This document shows positions 1 through 21,568 of a DNA stretch of 21,568 nt, piece after piece. The DNA comes from a virus (taxonomy: Duplodnaviria > Heunggongvirae > Uroviricota > Caudoviricetes). Positions within the stretch are counted from its first letter, which is position 1, and each line of letters starts with the position of its first letter. The notes beneath the pieces were generated by a model. The model was not told where the DNA came from. It searched no databases and saw nothing but the letters and a program-made list of their open reading frames with translations. The position numbers and the translations under genes were made by a program. Location of the stretch: positions 1 through 21,568 of IMG/VR virus record IMGVR_UViG_3300045988_101336; one strand, given 5' to 3'.

Positions 1-16
1 GACGCTCTTCCGATCT
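1..16. other. Sequencing adapter remnant (Illumina TruSeq-type, GACGCTCTTCCGATCT)
   Basis: Bases 1-16 read GACGCTCTTCCGATCT, the 3' end of the common Illumina adapter; its reverse complement AGATCGGAAGAGC... sits at the other end of the window. Not biological sequence. Confidence 0.85.
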
Positions 17-921
17 TTTTTTAAATTATCTATGGTAGCGGATTCATAAGACGATCTGATAATGCGTATTTGGTCAACTTTCTTGGAGTAGCTATCATCA
101 AAGATAGATTCAATTGCTTCTAAAAATTTGTCTTTAATAGTGTCTTCTTGGCAGAATGGGCAACATGTGCCATTTAAATATAATTCCTTCCCTTTTTTCA
201 CCCAATCAAGGTTTTGAAGTTTTTTAATTGTTTCTGACAAATAGCTATTACTTGAGTCTATAATCGGAGTGGATAAAGATTCTTTATCTTTTTCTGAAAT
301 GATATATTTTTCTAAAGGTGTAATTGATGCAGTGAATTTATCTTTGTTCTTTAAAAGAATACTATATTCTTGAGCAAGTGACTCGATGTTAACGTCAGTG
401 GTTTGAGGGGCTTTTTTAACTTGCTCATAAAATGATCTCTTGCTTCCTAACTGACCTTTCATCAAGTTCTTTAAGTCAGATGTTCTAAAAGGTTCTGCTT
501 TATTCCATATTAAATCAATATATTCATTTTCTTTATTGTTTTTATCGTTAATTAAACGCTCAATAACGTTTTTTTTATCTTTGTATTTTGTAAGTAGGTC
601 TTGTCTTATAGCTTCTTTTTCCAACAATTCTTTTTCAATGTCAGCATTTTCCTTACTTAAAGTGAATACTCCTTTTTGCTCTTTTGCATTATAAAAATTA
701 TCCTCAACAAACTTAGTATTATAAACCAATAGGCGAAAAGTATCTATGAAAGGACATTCGCATTCTTTGTAGTCCGTGTTATTTGGATTATAGAAATAAT
801 TAGATATGGTTGATTTTCCACAACCGTTGTGACCATAAAGTATATTAATTTTTTTTGAGAGATTAAGAGTTGTGAAGCTATCTTTCTTATAGCTGGTTAT
901 ATTCTTTAATTTAAGTTCCAT
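17..921 (-). CDS. SMC/Rad50-like P-loop ATPase with coiled coil and CxxC hook motif, N-terminal ~300 aa only (3' end runs off the window); candidate defence cargo at the cos-proximal variable locus
   Basis: Own translation of the minus strand from ATG at 921-919 (SD-like GAGG about 7 nt upstream): MELKLKNITSYKKDSFTTLNLSKKINILYGHNGCGKSTIS... Walker A GHNGCGKST at residues 31-39, then a long K/E-rich predicted coiled-coil stretch, then CCPFCQ (CxxC, Rad50/RloC-like zinc hook) near residue 257. No stop before the window edge, which is why the ORF track omits it. Strongly AT-rich with AT-rich codons, unlike the phage backbone. Confidence 0.6.
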
Positions 922-1251
922 TTTAAAACCTCATCACTGCCAATGATATGGTATAAATATTTAAGCTGTTTAACATGAATTATTTTGCTAAACGATAAAG
1001 ATCTACCTCAGAAGTTTACTTTGTTCAAGCAAAATCTTTTGTTCTAAGAGATATAAAAATTTTTATTAATAGTTTGATTTTTGTTCATGGGATTTCCTTT
1101 TTTTATGTTTTTACAAAGTAATAACTATGAATGTATCAGGTGCATGGTTTTGCATGTGTCAAAGTTATGCGTCCTCATTGCTTTACGTCACAGCTAGCGA
1201 GGATTCAACGTACTCATGCAACTGCATTAAAAGCGCCCCATGAAGCGGGCG

Positions 1252-1270
1252 GGCGAGGCGGGGAAAGCAC
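1252..1270. other. cos: P2-type cos site (19-nt cohesive-end sequence GGCGAGGCGGGGAAAGCAC)
   Basis: Exact string GGCGAGGCGGGGAAAGCAC at 1252-1270, matching from memory the 19-nt 5' cohesive end of phage P2. It lies immediately upstream of the Q-P packaging genes, as in P2, with GT-rich repeats at 1290-1400 plausibly forming the terminase recognition region. Confidence 0.75.
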
Positions 1271-1439: not shown

Positions 1440-2474
1440 TCAGCCGTTGTCAGTGTCCAGTGAGTAGTTTTTAAAGCGGATGACCTCCTGACCGAGCCAG
1501 CCGTTTATTTCCCGAATCCTGTCCTGTAGCGGGATAAGCTCATTGCGGACAAAGACCTTTGCCACTTTCTCAATATCGCCCAGCGACCCGACGTTCTCCG
1601 GCTTGCCGCCCATCAACTGAAAGGGGATGCGGTGCGCGTCCAGCAGGTCTGCGGCACTGGCTTTTTTGATATTAAAAAAATCGTCCTTCGTTGCCACTTC
1701 ACTGAGCGGGATAATTTTAATGCCGTCAGCTTTCCCCTGCGGGGCATAGAGAAACAGATTTTTAAAGTTGTTGCGGCCTTTCGACTTAACCATGTTTTCG
1801 CGAAGCATTTCGATATCGTTGCGATCCTGCACGGCATCGGTGACGTACATGATGTATCCGGCATGTGCGCCGTTTTCGTAATACTTGCGGCGGAACAGCG
1901 TGGCCGACTCATTCAGCCAGGCAGAGTTAAGGGCGCTGAGATATTCCGGCAGGCCGTACAGCTCCTGATTGATATCCGGCTCCAGCAGGTGAAACACGGA
2001 GCCGGGCGCGAAAGGTGTCGGCTCGTTGAAGGACGGCACCCACCAGTAAACATCCTCCTCCACGCCACGGCGGGTATATTTTGCCGGTGAGGTTTCCAGT
2101 CTGATGACCTTACCGGTGGTGCTGTAACGCTTTTCCAGAAACGCATTACCGAACACCAGAAAATCCAGCGCAAAGCGGCTGAAATCCTGCTGGGAAAGCC
2201 ACGGATGCGGGATAAATGTCGAGGCCAGAATATTACGTTTGACGTAAATCGGTGAGCTGTGATGCACGGCAGCACGCAGGCTTTTTGCCAGACCGGTAAA
2301 GCTGATTGGTGGCTCATACCATCTGCCGTTACTGATGCATTCGACGTAATCCAGAATGTCACGGCGGTCGAGTACCGGCACCGGCTCACCAAAGGTGAAT
2401 GCCTCCATTTTCGGGGCGCTGGCGGTCATTTTTTTTGCCGCAGGTTGCGGTGTTTTCCCTTTTTTCTTGCTCAT
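1440..2474 (-). CDS. Q: Portal vertex protein (P2 gpQ-like)
   Basis: 344-aa ORF starting MSKKKGKTPQPAAKK...; recognised as P2 gpQ by sequence and length. Its ATG overlaps the stop of P (ATGA). Confidence 0.92.
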   Translation of the reverse strand: MSKKKGKTPQPAAKKMTASAPKMEAFTFGEPVPVLDRRDILDYVECISNGRWYEPPISFTGLAKSLRAAVHHSSPIYVKRNILASTFIPHPWLSQQDFSRFALDFLVFGNAFLEKRYSTTGKVIRLETSPAKYTRRGVEEDVYWWVPSFNEPTPFAPGSVFHLLEPDINQELYGLPEYLSALNSAWLNESATLFRRKYYENGAHAGYIMYVTDAVQDRNDIEMLRENMVKSKGRNNFKNLFLYAPQGKADGIKIIPLSEVATKDDFFNIKKASAADLLDAHRIPFQLMGGKPENVGSLGDIEKVAKVFVRNELIPLQDRIREINGWLGQEVIRFKNYSLDTDNG

Positions 2475-4246
2475 CAGTAAAACTCCAGAATGGTGGATGT
2501 CAGCGGGGTGCTGATACCGGCGGTGAGTGGCTCATTTAACAGGGCGTGCATGGTCGCCCAGGCGAGGTCGGCGTGGCTGGCTTCCTCGCTGCGGCTGGCC
2601 TCATAGGTGGCGCTGCGCCCGCTGCTGGTCATGGTCTTGCGGATAGCCATAAACGAGCTGGTGATGTCGGTGGCGCTGACGTCGTATTCCAGACAGCCAC
2701 GGCGGATAACGTCTTTTGCCTTGAGCACCATTGCGGTTTTCATTTCCGGTGTGTAGCGGATATCGCGCGCGGCGGGATAGAACGAGCGCACGAGCTGGAA
2801 CACGCCGACACCGAGGCCGGTGGCATCAATACCGATGTATTCGACGTTATATTTTTCGGTGAGTTTGCGGATGGATTCAGCCTGAGTGGCAAAGTCCATG
2901 CCTTTCCACTGGTGACGCTCAAGTATTCTGAATTTGCCACCGGCCACCACCGGCGGTGCCAGTACCACGCATCCGGCGCTGTCGCCACGGTGTGACGGGT
3001 CGTAACCAATCCATACCGGACGTGAGCCGAACGGATTGGCGGCAAACGGAGCATAGTCTTCCCATTCTTCCAGCGTGTCGACCATGCAGCGTTGCAGCTC
3101 CTCGAACGGGAACACCGACGCCTTGTCGTCAACAAATTCACACATGAACAGGTTTTTAAAATCGTCGGCGCTGTTTTCACGTTTGAGCTGCTCAATGTCG
3201 AACAGCGTGCAGCCGCCTTTCAGGGCGTCCTCAATGGTGACAATCTGTCGCCACTGGCCGTCCGCACAGAGAAGCCCACCGGCAAGGGCGTTATGACTGA
3301 CGTCGATTTCCACGCGTTCGGCGGCGCTGGCGCGTCCCCGGTTAAACAGTTCACCCGACCAGAACGGGTAGGCGTCGTGCGCCAGCGTGGACGGGGTGGA
3401 GAAATAGGTCGAGCGCAGGTGGCTCTGTGAGGCCATACCTGATGCCACCTTACGCAGTACCTGAAAATTCGGGATCCAGAAAATCTCGTCGACGTACAGG
3501 TCGCCGTTATGGCTCTGTGCGGTGTTGGAGTTGGTGCCGAGAAAAATCAGTTTTGCGCCGTTATTGCCCAGGACAATCGGGTCACCGGTCAGGTCAACGT
3601 CAACCAGACGGGCAAAGGCGATGATGTATTCACGGAACACATACGCCTGCGTTTTACTGGCCGACAGAAAAATCTGGTTATGGCCGGTTTTCAGGGCGCG
3701 CAGCAGTGCCTCGCGGGAAAAATAAAACGTCGCTCCAATCTGGCGGGATTTCAGGATATCGCGGATGCGGTGCTCAAGCCCGGCGCGATACCAGTGCAAC
3801 TGATATTCGAAAGACTGCTCAAAGAAAATCTGCTCCAGCTTTTCGATGGCCTCGTCACTGAAAAAATTCTTTTTCGGTTTGCGCCGCCCGCCTTTGTTGC
3901 GGTTAGCGACGTTCGGATTAAGGTCTGCCTCGTTGCCGGTCTGGCTGTAGCGATTTACCCGTGCCAGTCGTTCAATCTGGCGTCCCAGCAGGTCAATTTC
4001 CTTGAAGTCACCGCCGGTTTTCTGCGGTTTGATGATGAGCTGGGTCAGCCGCGCTTCCAGGCTCATTTCGACACGGCTGATGGGGGCAACGCTGTCCCAG
4101 CCGTCGCGCTGTTTCCAGCTCTGCACCGTCGGGCGTTTCATCTGCAACATGGCGGCAATCTGCGGCACGGAAAATCCCTGCCAGTACAGCAGCGCCGCCT
4201 GACGACGCGGGTCGTGTAAAAGAGTGGTGTCTGTGGTGATGGTCAT
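2474..4246 (-). CDS. P: Terminase large (ATPase) subunit (P2 gpP-like)
   Basis: Track ORF 2474..4276 begins at a TTG; the first ATG (4246-4244) gives MTITTDTTLLHDPRRQAALLYWQGF..., which matches the P2 gpP N-terminus and a ~590-aa product. Confidence 0.92.
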   Translation of the reverse strand: MTITTDTTLLHDPRRQAALLYWQGFSVPQIAAMLQMKRPTVQSWKQRDGWDSVAPISRVEMSLEARLTQLIIKPQKTGGDFKEIDLLGRQIERLARVNRYSQTGNEADLNPNVANRNKGGRRKPKKNFFSDEAIEKLEQIFFEQSFEYQLHWYRAGLEHRIRDILKSRQIGATFYFSREALLRALKTGHNQIFLSASKTQAYVFREYIIAFARLVDVDLTGDPIVLGNNGAKLIFLGTNSNTAQSHNGDLYVDEIFWIPNFQVLRKVASGMASQSHLRSTYFSTPSTLAHDAYPFWSGELFNRGRASAAERVEIDVSHNALAGGLLCADGQWRQIVTIEDALKGGCTLFDIEQLKRENSADDFKNLFMCEFVDDKASVFPFEELQRCMVDTLEEWEDYAPFAANPFGSRPVWIGYDPSHRGDSAGCVVLAPPVVAGGKFRILERHQWKGMDFATQAESIRKLTEKYNVEYIGIDATGLGVGVFQLVRSFYPAARDIRYTPEMKTAMVLKAKDVIRRGCLEYDVSATDITSSFMAIRKTMTSSGRSATYEASRSEEASHADLAWATMHALLNEPLTAGISTPLTSTILEFY

Positions 4247-4419
4247 GAATACCTCGCCGTGATGAATACACGGCAAGGCTACTGAGTCGCGCCCCGCGAT
4301 TCGCTAAGGTGCTGTTGTGTCAGTGATAAGCCATCCGGGACTGATGGCGGAGGATGCGCATCGTCGGGAAACTGATGCCGACATGTGACTCCTCTAATCA
4401 CTATTCAGGACTCCTGACA

Positions 4420-5274
4420 ATGGCAAAAAAAGTCTCAAAATTCTTTCGTATCGGCGTTGAGGGTGACACCTGTGACGGGCGTGTCATCAGTGCGCAGGAT
4501 ATTCAGGAAATGGCCGAAACCTTTGACCCGCGTGTCTATGGTTGCCGCATTAATCTGGAACATCTGCGCGGCATCCTGCCTGACGGTATTTTTAAACGTT
4601 ATGGCGATGTGGCCGAACTGAAGGCCGAAAAGATTGACGATGATTCGGCGCTGAAAGGCAAATGGGCGCTGTTTGCGAAAATCACCCCGACCGATGACCT
4701 TATCGCGATGAACAAGGCCGCGCAGAAGGTCTACACCTCAATGGAAATTCAGCCGAACTTTGCCAACACCGGCAAATGTTATCTGGTGGGGCTGGCCGTC
4801 ACCGATGACCCGGCAAGCCTCGGCACGGAATACCTGGAATTCTGCCGCACGGCAAAACACAACCCCCTGAACCGCTTCAAATTAAGCCCTGAAAACCTGA
4901 TTTCAGTGGCAACGCCTGTTGAGCTGGAATTTGAAGACCTGCCTGAAACCGTGTTCACAGCCCTGACCGAAAAGGTGAAATCCATTTTTGGCCGCAAACA
5001 GGCCAGCGATGACGCCCGTCTGAATGACGTGCATGAAGCGGTGACCGCTGTCGCTGAGCATGTGCAGGAAAAACTGAGCGCCACTGAGCAGCGCCTTGCT
5101 GAGATGGAAACCGCCTTTTCCGCACTTAAGCAGGATGTGACTGACAGGGCGGATGAAACCAGTCAGGCATTCACCCGCCTGAAAAACAGTCTCGACCACA
5201 CCGAAAGTCTGACCCAGCAGCGCCGCAGCAAGGCCACCGGCGGTGGCGGTGACGCCCTGATGACGAACTGCTGA
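4420..5274 (+). CDS. O: Capsid scaffolding protein (P2 gpO-like)
   Basis: Internal ATG at 4420 gives MAKKVSKFFRIGVEGDTCDGRVISAQDIQEMAETFDPRVYG..., the recognised gpO N-terminus (284 aa). The track ORF starts earlier at 4354 with an upstream extension. Divergently arranged relative to P. Confidence 0.9.
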   Translation: MAKKVSKFFRIGVEGDTCDGRVISAQDIQEMAETFDPRVYGCRINLEHLRGILPDGIFKRYGDVAELKAEKIDDDSALKGKWALFAKITPTDDLIAMNKAAQKVYTSMEIQPNFANTGKCYLVGLAVTDDPASLGTEYLEFCRTAKHNPLNRFKLSPENLISVATPVELEFEDLPETVFTALTEKVKSIFGRKQASDDARLNDVHEAVTAVAEHVQEKLSATEQRLAEMETAFSALKQDVTDRADETSQAFTRLKNSLDHTESLTQQRRSKATGGGGDALMTNC

Positions 5275-7252: not shown

Positions 7253-7762
7253 ATGATGACGCTGATTATTCCGCGAAAGGAGGCTCCCGTGTCCGGTGAG
7301 GGTACGGTGGTTATCCCGCAACCGGCAGGCGACGAGCCGGTGATTAAAAACACGTTCTTTTTTCCCGATATCGACCCGAAGCGCGTCCGGGAACGTATGC
7401 GCCTTGAGCAGACCGTCGCCCCCGCCCGTCTGCGTGAGGCCATCAAGTCAGGCATGGCGGAGACGAATGCGGAGCTGTACGAGTACCGCGAACAGAAAAT
7501 TGCCACCGGTTTTACGCGTCTGGCGGACGTCCCGGCGGACGACATCGACGGTGAAAGCATCAAAGTTTTTTACTACGAGCGCGCCGTGTGTGCGATGGCG
7601 ACCGCGTCGCTTTATGAGCGTTATCGCGGCGTGGATGCCAGTGCGAAAGGTGACAAGAAGGCTGACAGCATTGACAGCACCATTGATGAACTGTGGCGGG
7701 ATATGCGCTGGGCGGTGGCGCGTATCCAGGACAAGCCGCGCTGCATCGTGAGTCAAATCTGA
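7253..7762 (+). CDS. L: Head completion / stabilisation protein (P2 gpL-like)
   Basis: ATG at 7253 gives MMTLIIPRKEAPVSGEGTVVIPQPAGDEPVIKNTFFFPDIDPKRVRE... (169 aa). The track ORF starts at a GTG at 7193. Confidence 0.88.
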   Translation: MMTLIIPRKEAPVSGEGTVVIPQPAGDEPVIKNTFFFPDIDPKRVRERMRLEQTVAPARLREAIKSGMAETNAELYEYREQKIATGFTRLADVPADDIDGESIKVFYYERAVCAMATASLYERYRGVDASAKGDKKADSIDSTIDELWRDMRWAVARIQDKPRCIVSQI

Positions 7763-10732: not shown

Positions 10733-12259
10733 ATGCGCGAACCAGTGTATTTAGAAGATGTCTTTAAACTTTCGGGTATCCCGACAATTACTTTTGTTGA
10801 ACCTAACGAGTATAAACACCTCTATGTGTCGATAAGAACAGCGGGAAGAGGGGTAATTATTGAAGGGCCATCAGGTATAGGGAAGACGACTTGCGTAAGA
10901 CAGGTTATTGAAAAGTTAAAATTCGAGACCAGTAGTCGGATAATTAAAGAGTTTAAAGTATTGTCTGGAAGGAAAAAGGAAGATAAAGCCCAGATTGAAA
11001 ATATAATAACAACGAGTGGTTTCGGTGGGGTGATTATTGATGATTTTCATAAGTTAGATGATGAGTTGAAGCATAAAATATCTGACTTGCTGAAAAATTT
11101 AGCGGATGAACAACCCTTAGATTCTAAGTTGATTATTATAGGTATAAATAAAACAGGCAAATCACTGATTGATTTATCACCGGATTTACTAAATCGAATC
11201 TCCATTGTTAAATTTGAGTCCAATCCGGAATATAAGGTCAGGGAGTTGCTAGAAAAAGGTGAGAATGCGCTTAATTTCAAATTAAATGTAAAAGAAGATA
11301 TTGTAAAGGACTCGGATGGGGCATTTCATCTGGCGCAAATGTTGGCTTATAATGCTTGTTTACAGGCTGATATCACAGAAGAGTTAGAATCTCCTCGGGA
11401 AACAAATATTAGCTATGAATCACTTAAAGAAACAGTGATTCAGGATCTTAGCTATAGATTCAATGATATAGTCGTTCGCTTTGTGAAAGGCCAGCGGGTT
11501 AAAAAGGGTAGTAGAGCTCCATATCTCCACGTTTTATATTGGTTATCTAAAGAAGATGAGCGTTCTTTAAATTTGACAAGTTATTTAATTAACAATCCTA
11601 ATCATCGTAATAGCGTTGGGCAAATTCTGACGCGAGGCCATTTAAAAACGCATTATGAGAGCAATCCTGATTTTTCGGATGTTATTCATTATAATGATGA
11701 AACTACGGAGATTTCAATCGAAGATCCCAAGTTTTATTATTATATAAAGAATTTGTTATGGAGCAAGCTTGCGGAGAAGATAGGTTTCACATCATTTGAG
11801 TTTAAGTCGAAATATGACTTTGCTTTATCATTTGCTGGAGCTAATAGAAATCATGCGGAATATTTAAATCAAAAGCTGATTGAGAATGAGTTATCTGTTT
11901 TTTATGATTTCAATGAGCAGGCCAGAATACTTTCTGAAGATGTAGAACAATATCTTGCTCCAATTTATAGGAGTGAGTCTGTTTTTGTAATTCCGTTTTT
12001 GAGTAGGGATTATCCAACTAGAATATGGTGCAAATTTGAAGGTGATACATTTAGGGATAGATTTGGTGATGGGTGTGTTATTCCTTTAAGATATAGTGAT
12101 GCACCTGTTGGCATGTTTGATACTGCCAATGGCATTGGAGGTTTTACCATAAATCCTAGTGAGGATATATACGCACAGCTAGATACATTTGCAAACTTGC
12201 TTGTTGAAAAAATATGTGAAAAAAGAATGCTCTTAAATGGAAAAGAGAATGAAGAATAA
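10733..12259 (+). CDS. P-loop NTPase (Walker A/B) fused to a C-terminal TIR-like domain; candidate single-gene anti-phage defence (abortive infection) protein in the S-V variable locus
   Basis: 508-aa ORF, strongly AT-rich, between backbone genes S and V. Walker A GPSGIGKTT (K51, codon 10883-10885); Walker B-like GGVIIDDFH (D103/D104). C-terminal ~150 aa (from about residue 358, roughly nt 11804 onward) reads YDFALSFAGANRNHAEYLNQKLIENELSVFYDF...SVFVIPFLSRDYPTRIWCKFEGDTF, which matches the pattern of bacterial TIR domains, with a candidate catalytic Glu at E436. Domain calls are by eye, without HMM confirmation. Confidence 0.7.
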   Translation: MREPVYLEDVFKLSGIPTITFVEPNEYKHLYVSIRTAGRGVIIEGPSGIGKTTCVRQVIEKLKFETSSRIIKEFKVLSGRKKEDKAQIENIITTSGFGGVIIDDFHKLDDELKHKISDLLKNLADEQPLDSKLIIIGINKTGKSLIDLSPDLLNRISIVKFESNPEYKVRELLEKGENALNFKLNVKEDIVKDSDGAFHLAQMLAYNACLQADITEELESPRETNISYESLKETVIQDLSYRFNDIVVRFVKGQRVKKGSRAPYLHVLYWLSKEDERSLNLTSYLINNPNHRNSVGQILTRGHLKTHYESNPDFSDVIHYNDETTEISIEDPKFYYYIKNLLWSKLAEKIGFTSFEFKSKYDFALSFAGANRNHAEYLNQKLIENELSVFYDFNEQARILSEDVEQYLAPIYRSESVFVIPFLSRDYPTRIWCKFEGDTFRDRFGDGCVIPLRYSDAPVGMFDTANGIGGFTINPSEDIYAQLDTFANLLVEKICEKRMLLNGKENEE

Positions 12260-16034: not shown

Positions 16035-16475
16035 ATGAATTACATATATTCCGCGACTACAAACTCTTTCTATCCGCTGGAGATGAAAGAGGATTACACT
16101 CAAGCTGACTCATGGCCAGATGATGCTGTTGAAGTTGATGAGCAAGCGTATATTGAGTTTTCCGGATTACCGCCGAAAGGAAAAATCCGTATCGCTGGAG
16201 AAAATGGTTTTCCTGCATGGTCTGAAATTCCACCACCAACACATGAGGAACAGATTGCTGCAGCCGAACTGGAAAAGCAGCAACTGATTAATCAGGCCAA
16301 CGATTATATGAACAGTAAACAATGGCCTGGTAAAGCGGCTATTGGTCGTCTGAAAGGTGAGGAACTGGCGCAATATAATTTGTGGCTGGATTATCTGGAC
16401 GCACTGGAGCTGGTCGATACTTCCGGTGCGCCAGATATTGAATGGCCTACGCCTCCGGCAGTTCAGGCCAGATGA
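16035..16475 (+). CDS. G: Tail fibre assembly chaperone (Tfa / P2 gpG-like) for the currently expressed fibre tip
   Basis: 146-aa ORF directly downstream of H, with the typical Tfa C-terminus (...LWLDYLDALELVDTSGAPDIEWPTPPAVQ). Confidence 0.8.
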   Translation: MNYIYSATTNSFYPLEMKEDYTQADSWPDDAVEVDEQAYIEFSGLPPKGKIRIAGENGFPAWSEIPPPTHEEQIAAAELEKQQLINQANDYMNSKQWPGKAAIGRLKGEELAQYNLWLDYLDALELVDTSGAPDIEWPTPPAVQAR

Positions 16476-17049
16476 CATCCGGCGCGGTGCTGGTATCTGT
16501 TGCCGTCACCGCGTCAATGTAATCCAGCACAGCGTTAAGGCGGGTTGTTTCTGCCTGCGTCAGTTTACGTCCGGCCTGCAATTTCAGCTGAATCAGACTG
16601 ATGGAGGCCATTGCAGTATCAATCAGTGACTGACGCTGTGCTTCTGCCGCGTCTACTGCGGCGCTATGCTGTGCCTCAGTATCGGTCACCCATTTCTCAC
16701 CATCCCATTTATCGTATGGCGTTAATGGGGCGATAGTGGTTGTATTTTCGGGGTAATCACCCGGTGCTGTGATTTCTTTGGCATCTCCCGTTTCGGTGTT
16801 ATAGACGATTTCACCGCGATGGTCTGGCACATATTCCCATGAGTTTAAATCCATCGAACGGCAGATAGCATAACCAGCCTTATGTGTACCAGGAGCATCT
16901 AAACAGGAATATGCAGGAATACCGACACCAATGGCAAGATATTCATTTGAAGTGGAAATATATTCCCGAGTTTCACCATCATAGTTATAGACGGTAATAT
17001 TCCCCGCCTTCGTGGCAATAAGCTCGCTATTTAATACGGCGTTATCCAT
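16447..17049 (-). CDS. Alternative tail fibre assembly chaperone (Tfa') belonging to the silent fibre cassette
   Basis: 200-aa minus-strand ORF with a Tfa-like C-terminus (...RLNAVLDYIDAVTATDTSTAPDVIWPELPEA). Convergent with tfa, overlapping it tail-to-tail by 29 bp (16447-16475). Confidence 0.75.
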   Translation of the reverse strand: MDNAVLNSELIATKAGNITVYNYDGETREYISTSNEYLAIGVGIPAYSCLDAPGTHKAGYAICRSMDLNSWEYVPDHRGEIVYNTETGDAKEITAPGDYPENTTTIAPLTPYDKWDGEKWVTDTEAQHSAAVDAAEAQRQSLIDTAMASISLIQLKLQAGRKLTQAETTRLNAVLDYIDAVTATDTSTAPDVIWPELPEA

Positions 17050-17570
17050 TATGCAGCCCTCACGATAAAGTTAAATGCAATATTTCGTGGACGGGTTTCA
17101 CTCCCGCCAGTATTACCGATACTCCCTCGTGAATGAAGTGTCGGTGACGGGATTAGGCTCCCTCCTGTATTTGTGGCATCAAGTCCTCGCCCTTGTGTGT
17201 ATGTTTTTTTGAAAATCGTAGCCAGTTCCCATTCATCTTTCGTGTCGTAACCATCATTGGCAACAACAATATGACGGTGTTTTTCCAGCATTCCTGCCTG
17301 AATACTCAATAAAACACGTCCTGCATCAATACCGCGCCCGTCATCCCAGCCACGAATAAACTCACCGCGTAAATCAGGTAATTTATTTGTCGGATAAGCC
17401 TTTGCCAGTTCCGGGTATTCTTCAGCAGAAAAAGCCGCACCGTTGCATTTCAGCCAGCCTGTTGGCGGTGTGGCTGAAGGCCACGGAACAGGCACACCAA
17501 CAGGTAATGCAGAGCCTTCTCCTAAACCAACGTTTATGAAAATGCAGAGATAACGGGCAACTGGCATCAT
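17049..17570 (-). CDS. Alternative tail fibre C-terminal (receptor-binding) cassette Sv', promoterless in this orientation; functional part about 17052-17528
   Basis: Minus-strand ORF whose first 20 codons (...INVGLGEGS) include the recombination site and parallel H residues ...[10 protein letters not shown]. Contains a tail-collar-like motif LPDLRGEFIRGWDDGRGIDAGR. The ATG at 17570 is probably incidental; expression would follow inversion and fusion to H. Confidence 0.7.
   Translation of the reverse strand: MMPVARYLCIFINVGLGEGSALPVGVPVPWPSATPPTGWLKCNGAAFSAEEYPELAKAYPTNKLPDLRGEFIRGWDDGRGIDAGRVLLSIQAGMLEKHRHIVVANDGYDTKDEWELATIFKKTYTQGRGLDATNTGGSLIPSPTLHSRGSIGNTGGSETRPRNIAFNFIVRAA
17517..17542. 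repeat. Right invertase recombination site (inverted copy)
   Basis: Plus strand TTCTCCTAAACC AA CGTTTATGAAAA; its reverse complement TTTTCATAAACG TT GGTTTAGGAGAA matches the left site in 11 of 12 positions of the right half-site and 8 of 12 of the left, with an identical central dinucleotide. Confidence 0.65.
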
Positions 17571-17591
17571 CTCCGGTTTTTATTCAGGGGG

Positions 17592-18191
17592 ATGCTCATG
17601 CTTATTGGCTATGTACGCGTGTCAACAAATGACCAGAACACGGAATTGCAGCGTAACGCGCTGGAGTGCGCAGGATGCGAGCGGATTTTTGAGGATAAAA
17701 TCAGCGGCACGAAGTCCGACCGACCGGGACTGAAAAAACTGCTCAGAACATTATCAGCAGGTGACACTCTGGTAGTCTGGAAGCTGGACAGGCTGGGGCG
17801 TAGTATGCGGCATCTGGTCATTCTGGTTGAGGAACTGCGCGAACGCGGCGTTAATTTTCGCAGTCTGACGGATGCTATTGATACCAGCACGCCGATGGGG
17901 CGTTTTTTCTTTCATGTGATGGGTGCCCTGGCTGAAATGGAGCGAGAACTCATTGTCGAGCGGACACGCGCCGGACTGGAAGCGGCCAGAGCCAAAGGTC
18001 GTATTGGTGGCAGACGTCCGAAACTCACCGCGAGTGAGTGGGAGCAGGTCGGACGGTTGCTGGCTGCGGGGGAATCTCGTCAACGTGTGGCGCTGATTTT
18101 TGATATTGGCCTGTCCACGCTCTATAAAAAATTCCCCTCATCAGCGGCAAAGAATAAATTGTGTCATCCCTTAGCCAACCGGGACAAATAG
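17592..18191 (+). CDS. Serine-recombinase DNA invertase (Hin/Gin/Cin/Pin family)
   Basis: 199-aa ORF M(LM)LIGYVRVSTNDQNTELQRNALECAGCERIFEDKISGTKSDRPGLKKLL...GDTLVVWKLDRLGRSMRHL...FRSLTDAIDTSTPMGRFFFHVMGALAEMERELIVERT...GGRRPKLT...LSTLYKK. Near-identical in pattern to Gin/Hin, including the catalytic serine motif (YVRVSTxDQ) and C-terminal HTH. The true start may be the ATG at 17598. Confidence 0.92.
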   Translation: MLMLIGYVRVSTNDQNTELQRNALECAGCERIFEDKISGTKSDRPGLKKLLRTLSAGDTLVVWKLDRLGRSMRHLVILVEELRERGVNFRSLTDAIDTSTPMGRFFFHVMGALAEMERELIVERTRAGLEAARAKGRIGGRRPKLTASEWEQVGRLLAAGESRQRVALIFDIGLSTLYKKFPSSAAKNKLCHPLANRDK

Positions 18192-21551: not shown

Positions 21552-21568
21552 AGATCGGAAGAGCACAC
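21552..21568. other. Sequencing adapter remnant (Illumina TruSeq-type read-through, AGATCGGAAGAGCACAC)
   Basis: Exact match to the start of the standard Illumina adapter read-through sequence; reverse-complementary in type to the remnant at 1-16. Confidence 0.85.

Follow-up and report, generated by a model that had tools for sequence, protein, structure and literature searches.

An AT-rich open reading frame runs off the left edge of the window (the whole stretch of viral DNA analyzed here, 21,568 nucleotides), close to a P2-type cos site, and its predicted product begins with an ATPase motif. We asked what the complete gene encodes, whether its truncation is biological and which kind of cargo it represents at this position. 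Our analyses indicate that it is probably the first 40%, counted from the 5′ end, of a gene for an anticodon nuclease of the RloC type (AAA_13 / PDC-S06), a single-gene system carried by a prophage; we take RloC to be COG4694.

The reading frame and its upstream region

The frame starts with an ATG at 921-919 on the minus strand and remains open as far as the window edge, and its predicted product starts MELKLKNITSYKK…ILYGHNGCGKSTIS. The features of this part of the window are as follows.

1-16, minus strand: Illumina adapter at the contig end, not gene sequence (exact AGATCGGAAGAGC at 4-16; divergence from the reference at the same point)
16-921, minus strand: 5′ part of the rloC-type gene, codons 1-302 of 739 (translation, Pfam and PADLOC matches, reference alignment)
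929-932, minus strand: Shine-Dalgarno sequence GAGG, 7 nt 5′ of the ATG (read directly from the sequence)
993-1029, minus strand: upstream block CTTGAAC-N17-TAGATCTTTATCG, kept in three E. coli alleles
1252-1270, plus strand: P2-type cos cohesive-end site, exact 19-nt match to GGCGAGGCGGGGAAAGCAC (none in 100 shuffles)
1440-2474, minus strand: portal gene (gpQ homologue), which bounds the hotspot on the opposite side (ORF; annotated as 'phage portal protein' in matching loci)
2474-4276, minus strand: large terminase gene (ORF, past the portal gene from cos)

The GC content of positions 17-921 is 29.5% (~30% for the full gene) versus 52-60% in the flanking phage genes, and 331 bp separate cos from the ATG, which bears out the first-pass annotation of an AT-rich minus-strand frame about 330 bp from cos. 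With such a base composition, an open frame of 301 codons would arise by chance with a probability of ~2e-12, and the span of the gene held just one further ORF of 40 aa or more (52 aa, plus strand). A search for tRNA genes in the whole window returned none. The fragment encodes the N lobe of an ABC-ATPase head, an N-terminal helical arm, a CPFC hook and the start of a C-terminal arm.

An alignment of upstream regions showed that the GAG of the Shine-Dalgarno sequence is kept in four alleles. The upstream block, which reads CTTGAAC-N17-TAGATCT(T/C)TA(T/C)C across the window and the L013 and L006 regions, is surrounded by diverged intergenic DNA and carries a GATC (Dam) site at the place expected for a −10 element. 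Judged by its sequence, it may be a promoter or an operator. A 14-codon Asn/Lys-rich ORF (MNKNQTINKNFYIS, 1044-1088, minus strand) was considered as a leader peptide for the tRNase gene and rejected; since it is missing in three other alleles, we dismissed it as a chance frame.

Origin of the truncation

The adapter core AGATCGGAAGAGC occurs at both ends of the window, at 4-16 on the minus strand and at 21552-21564 on the plus strand (2 occurrences versus 0.02 expected). When the window was compared with the intact 2220-bp gene of NZ_CP023142, only 2 mismatches (99.8% nucleotide identity) were found up to nucleotide 906 of the gene (window position 16), past which the window switches to adapter; the final five 'codons' (DRKSV) are adapter sequence. 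Because the break coincides exactly with the start of the adapter, the gene is cut artificially, by the end of the contig, and the truncation does not mark a pseudogene. The gene had been described earlier as truncated by the window, and the truncation is indeed real, but it is produced by adapter at the contig end; the frame is not lost past this edge, as the reference copies keep an intact frame of 739 aa. All statements on the 3′ 60% of the gene refer to reference copies (99.8% identity for NZ_CP023142), rather than to the source genome.

The contig as a whole is bounded by adapter read-through and not by biological ends (window 1-16 and 21552-21568). A tape-measure-like ORF at the right end of the window is cut by adapter in the same way.

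Location in the P2 old/tin hotspot

A hotspot between gpA and cos/gpQ, that of P2 old/tin, has been documented; validated defence genes (old, tin and retrons) dominate it, and its cargo includes non-defence items, such as partition systems and the cdt toxin (Rousset et al., PMC9122126). The exact P2 cos lying 331 bp from the gene places it in this slot, in agreement with the earlier suggestion of the P2 old/tin moron locus. In NZ_CP023142, the gene resides in a complete P2-like prophage with integrase, C/Cox, gpA, Q, P, O, N, M and further genes, and no other annotated gene separates cos/portal from gpA, the P2 replication endonuclease. The same organization was found in all six distinct loci inspected that had enough flanking sequence, where the rloC-type gene is the only annotated or sizeable gene from gpA to cos/portal. 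Metagenome and Logan contigs coding for a 99%-identical protein (P0001) are arranged as in NZ_CP023142. The effector part and any partner genes had been expected outside the window; the effector is there, but partners are not, as the gene stands alone, with gpA as its nearest annotated neighbour on that side.

A 31-aa ORF (MLKLVKVRQYNRYRFGKWETVCEHRRSYPTR) was observed between gpA and the 3′ end of the rloC-like gene (7583-7678, plus strand, in locus L001; 8229-8324 in L002). It is conserved and was predicted by gene callers in several loci.

Occurrence of the gene and its alleles

We used megablast to compare positions 17-1300 of the window with 5426 complete E. coli genomes. The whole stretch was present in 20 of them at 97.3-99.7% nucleotide identity, with the gene intact (739 aa, 97-100% nucleotide identity). 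The NZ_CP023142 copy (2220 bp, 739 aa, WP_095454399.1) carries the RefSeq label 'AAA family ATPase'. With blastn, any allele was detected in 95 of the 5426 genomes, comprising the 20 above and 75 at ~69-70% nucleotide identity. All 95 copies are chromosomal; none is on a plasmid and none occupies a core-genome position. Among 50,697 phage records searched at megablast sensitivity, no copy of the gene was found and only the cos-proximal 90-175 bp were matched; the gene is thus documented here from prophages and metagenome contigs only.

More divergent alleles from E. coli (P0030, 64% protein identity) and Enterobacter hormaechei (P0040, 54%) also occupy the gpA-cos-portal slot, and an APEC O1:K1:H7 strain carries an allele of 738 aa, 65% identical over its full length, between the portal gene and gpA. 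The genes of distant homologues (27-39% identity), which come from Vibrio, Iodobacter and a metagenome contig, stand alone in variable parts of the chromosome, and no partner gene recurs beside them.

Two further observations concern the E. coli records. A relative of 546 aa (P0046; 54% identity, 73% coverage) represents 1244 E. coli member sequences and is far commoner than the full-length alleles; it may represent a widespread variant that is truncated or has a divergent N-terminus. In addition, several RefSeq E. coli chromosomes (H45, H62, H64, H67, H71, H75 and H78) have the gene at ~2516-4735, at the very start of the record. This position fits a 2268-bp gpA plus a spacer of ~247 bp, suggesting that these assemblies were rotated to the prophage gpA instead of dnaA.

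Family membership and motifs

The 301-aa fragment already matched Pfam AAA_13 (9.4e-34, 117.6 bits) and PADLOC PDC-S06 (8.6e-92), and its matches to PtuA, LmuB, GajA, AriA, Rad50 and RecF models were mostly confined to the N-terminal P-loop region. With the full protein, both family matches extended from end to end: AAA_13 (PF13166) aligned aa 16-716 with model positions 9-712/713 (5e-102, 343 bits, cut-off 36) and the PDC-S06 model PDLC04886 was covered completely (1.2e-252). The PADLOC PrrC model PDLC02360 matched the C-terminal 280 aa (aa 457-734, 3.3e-14), whereas no TOPRIM or HNH match was found in the full protein with Pfam or PADLOC. NCBIfam contained no specific model for the protein, every match being far under its cut-off. 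Two distant homologues with ~28% identity bear the JGI name 'wobble nucleotide-excising tRNase'.

Within the window, the following protein features were located; Walker A is the only ATPase motif among them.

808-834, minus strand: Walker A / P-loop, G30-H-N-G-C-G-K-S-T38 (ILYGHNGCGKSTIS is aa 27-40)
166-657, minus strand: K/E-rich helical arm, aa 89-252, from head to hook (AlphaFold secondary structure, composition)
151-165, minus strand: CX2C zinc-hook motif, C253-C254-P-F-C257, in the loop 249-263 between predicted helices

The motifs lying 3′ of the window are LSEGE (499-503, the ABC signature), Walker B FIVIDDP (531-537; FIVIDD 531-536), T571-H572 and a C-terminal triad R647-x3-E651-x39-S690-H691, read from the 99.8% identical reference gene. 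Across 83 aligned full-length homologues, which range from 25 to 70% identity, G30, N32, G33, G35, K36, T38, C254, P255, F256, C257, L499-E503, D535, P537, T571, H572, R647, E651, S690 and H691 are invariant. Both motifs named in the first-pass annotation are confirmed; the key residues of the Walker A motif near the N-terminus (aa 30-38) are invariant, and CCPFCQ (aa 253-258, window 148-165) includes the CPFC that all 83 homologues share. Across the family, the arginine of the canonical HEPN motif R-x4-6-H is not kept; catalysis would depend on the PrrC-type R/E/H triad.

Three features define RloC: ABC-ATPase motifs like those of PrrC, an insert with a coiled coil and a CX2C zinc hook and, near the C-terminus, the motif Arg-X3-Glu-X36-52-His, in which the His often follows a Ser (PMC2610378). 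All three features are present in the full 739-aa protein, and the leading candidate proposed from the fragment, an AAA_13 protein of the RloC-PrrC type, has gained the nuclease triad that the window lacks, as the full gene from matching prophages has the RloC architecture throughout. In the portion of Supplementary Table 1 of Davidov & Kaufmann 2008 that lists it, orthologue no. 51 is E. coli APEC O1 YP_852004 (738 aa), with the flanking genes given as 'Phage replication initiation, Capsid' (PMC2610378); as far as this entry goes, our 738-aa APEC-lineage allele fits it in size, lineage and flanking genes. The link to the characterized GkaRloC is through motifs, HMMs and this table entry, not through direct alignment. 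Anantharaman et al. grouped 'PrrC/RloC/APECO1_4465' as ABC-ATPase-fused HEPN RNases and noted that APECO1_4465 occurs in prophages too. An E. coli AAA-ATPase flagged PDC-S06 was cited in a 2025 preprint as a likely true defence protein.

Predicted structure and selection

An AlphaFold2 model was built with the 83-sequence alignment (mean pLDDT 82). It divides the protein as follows.

aa 1-88: head N lobe, beta-rich
aa 90-141: 52-residue helix, followed by shorter helices up to aa 248
aa 249-263: loop holding CPFC
aa 264-464: helices, including a 46-residue helix at 403-448
aa 466-615: head C lobe
about aa 616-739: helical C-terminal domain (putative HEPN-class ribonuclease)

A helical insert of ~380 aa, bearing CPFC at 254-257, thus splits the ABC-ATPase head. 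The prediction for this insert is not a simple two-stranded antiparallel coiled coil. The K/E-rich coiled coil of about 200 residues described earlier was approximately right in that the region is mostly helical (26 K and 17 E among the 164 residues of aa 89-252), but one long continuous helix is predicted only at 90-141, with short helices at 142-248. No relative of solved structure emerged from sequence and profile searches of PDB, which gave generic Rad50/SMC P-loop matches and coiled-coil noise only. A fold search with the whole model returned ABC/SMC/Rad50 heads only and nothing on the effector domain; a solved structure of the RloC-like family was found by none of these three PDB searches.

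We also compared the present 739-aa protein with the 738-aa APEC-lineage allele region by region. Amino acid identities were as follows.

Head N lobe: 75%
N arm: 58%
C arm: 47%
Head C lobe: 77%
Nuclease domain: 83%

Identity at third codon positions was uniformly low (~0.41-0.52, with 0.27 in the 15-codon hook loop), which indicates that the gene is old and has been under long-term purifying selection on a working protein. The catalytic modules are constrained and the arms free to drift.

The enterobacterial P2-slot alleles share a conserved acidic C-terminal tail (…MMDEEEEETVTA; …KMMDEEEEETVTA), located at 7689-7730 in L001 and corresponding to aa 727-739. It is missing in more distant family members.

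Alternative interpretations

A gene with RloC architecture could also serve the prophage itself, as a DNA-damage-responsive brake on translation that adjusts induction or as an addiction-type toxin by which the prophage is stabilized. This would suit the response of RloC to genotoxic DNA breaks without phage (PMC3874168), the candidate-level status of anti-phage activity for PDC-S06 and the P2-borne alleles, and the partition systems and cdt toxin reported in the P2 hotspot by Rousset et al. (PMC9122126). However, the validated defence genes old, tin and retrons dominate the slot, and the family occurs as solitary genes in variable regions and prophages, which is typical of defence genes. As regards addiction, a self-contained nuclease without an antitoxin partner makes a poor module. 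We consider a prophage-serving role improbable.

The first-pass annotation had also left room for Lamassu-type and OLD-like proteins. A sensor resembling Lamassu LmuB, or another SMC-like sensor with partner effectors beyond the window, is suggested by the SMC/Rad50-like head and its long helical insert and by matches to LmuB models (3e-5 to 3e-6). These matches cover only the P-loop (aa 1-41), however, and neither LmuA/LmuC-like genes nor other partners were found in the six loci, where gpA follows directly and the effector is fused in cis, so that such a sensor is very unlikely. An even less likely identity is that of an OLD/Gabija-type ATPase-nuclease, like the usual occupant of the slot, P2 old: the slot and an ABC-ATPase N-terminus are shared, but the weak matches to GajA (~7e-5, aa 5-39) and PtuA (4e-6, aa 7-119) are N-terminal only, the full protein gave no TOPRIM or HNH match with Pfam or PADLOC, AAA_13 and PDC-S06 cover its whole length, and a PrrC-type triad is present at its C-terminus. 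A host housekeeping protein of the SMC/RecN/SbcC repair type or a decayed pseudogene, to which the weak Rad50 and RecF matches and the incomplete ORF in the window might point, is hardly credible for a rare AT-rich gene (30% GC) found in only 95 of 5426 E. coli genomes, inside a P2-like prophage at each inspected locus, with a fused PrrC-type ribonuclease domain and no SbcD/Mre11 neighbour, whose break is sequencing adapter and whose intact 739-aa copies are under purifying selection.

Other features of the window

A second AT-rich island (10733-12259, plus strand, 33-38% GC) was observed between tail-completion (S-like) and baseplate (V-like) genes. It encodes a 508-aa protein with an N-terminal AAA/P-loop region, a C-terminal TIR_2 match just below threshold (27.6 bits, cut-off 28) and a match to PADLOC PDC-S59 at aa 53-337 (1.5e-19), and is probably another defence cargo gene. 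A serine recombinase gene (17592-18191, plus strand; Resolvase + HTH_7, 8e-53) lies next to genes in the opposite orientation for tail-fibre collar (17049-17570, minus strand) and tail-fibre assembly (16447-17049, minus strand). The region 16447-18191 sits downstream of tail-fibre genes and looks like a Gin/Cin/Hin-type invertible host-range switch.

Proposed mode of action

For the RloC-type nuclease, the preferred identity of the cos-proximal gene, function can be approached through its characterized relatives. In GkaRloC, zinc-hook mutations activate the nuclease, DNA-requiring ATP hydrolysis switches it on, and proximal DNA ends were proposed as the trigger (PMC3458546). Inducers of double-strand breaks activate RloC in vivo, and in Acinetobacter tRNA-Glu and tRNA-Gln are cleaved (PMC3874168). 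Excision of the wobble nucleotide by RloC should defeat phage tRNA repair (PMC2610378). A literature search returned no experiment on the present protein or, as far as found, on any P2-borne allele. Based on the above mechanism, we propose that the prophage gene is a self-contained sensor-effector, and we infer zinc binding, a DNA trigger, tRNase activity and an anti-phage phenotype by homology. In a lysogen, the zinc hook and the ATPase head would hold the nuclease silent, by homology with the Geobacillus and Acinetobacter RloC proteins. The nuclease would be freed by DNA binding and ATP hydrolysis once an infecting phage produces DNA ends or breaks, and would cleave the tRNA anticodon loop and excise the wobble nucleotide. 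The resulting halt of translation would abort the infection, so that the population of lysogens and the P2-like prophage they carry would be protected.

A more specific and rather doubtful idea is that the enterobacterial P2-slot clade (54-100% identical; E. coli and Enterobacter) is a distinct RloC subtype with an auto-inhibiting tail and arms that tune the trigger. The acidic tail could be an auto-inhibitory element or mimic nucleic acid, inhibiting the head or the nuclease of its own protein, and which structures in phage DNA set off the response, for instance the ends or the replication intermediates of a rival phage, could depend on the diverging arms. If such a subtype exists, it would represent a HEPN-based functional replacement of Old in the same slot, and convergent 'DNA-sensing ATPase to tRNA nuclease' immunity would be swapped as cassettes.

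Comparison with known systems

The Rad50/SbcC/SMC heads differ from the present protein, which has far shorter arms, a fused ribonuclease and no Mre11/SbcD partner, and is encoded by a mobile, rare and AT-rich gene. PrrC, the anticodon nuclease for tRNA-Lys that the E. coli prr locus encodes, has an ATPase C lobe and a nuclease domain homologous to those of the present protein, with the same catalytic triad pattern. However, PrrC has ~400 aa without a coiled-coil/zinc-hook insert and nicks rather than excises, and to our knowledge it occurs only within a type Ic hsd locus, by which it is silenced. The present protein has 739 aa with a 380-aa insert, and its gene neighbours gpA and cos/portal instead of hsd genes.

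P2 Old occupies the same hotspot and likewise fuses an ABC-ATPase DNA sensor to a nuclease. It is now reported to be an ABC-ATPase-TOPRIM abortive tRNase triggered by a DNA substrate (PMC12445682; bioRxiv 10.64898/2026.07.10.737580). Its effector is TOPRIM and not a PrrC/RloC domain of the putative HEPN class, it has neither a long helical insert nor a zinc hook, and its homology to the present protein is limited to the shared P-loop. As the classical occupant is thus also an ABC-ATPase tRNase triggered by DNA, the P2 slot appears to exchange analogous modules, and the present gene would add a further case of abortive immunity directed at tRNA to the cos-proximal hotspot of P2.

The closest resemblance is to RloC itself, in size (739 aa versus 683-895 aa in the portion of Table S1 considered, PMC2610378), in the CX2C hook insert between Walker A and the signature motif, in the C-terminal R-x3-E-x39-S-H triad and in being a solitary gene without a linked R-M system. 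Differences are the identity of only ~28% to the JGI-labelled RloC proteins and the acidic C-terminal tail of the enterobacterial P2-slot clade, which distant members do not have. PDC-S06, also a single-gene system, is matched from end to end with no structural difference; it is a computational candidate label without an assigned mechanism and appears to overlap with the RloC family, which is of small practical value to annotators using PADLOC. Both the RloC family and this prophage slot are already known, so the interest of the finding is low. It nevertheless assigns a function, by homology, to a gene that RefSeq labels as 'AAA family ATPase', and offers a tractable E. coli-native RloC allele for probing the anti-phage role, trigger and tRNA targets of the family in a natural prophage.
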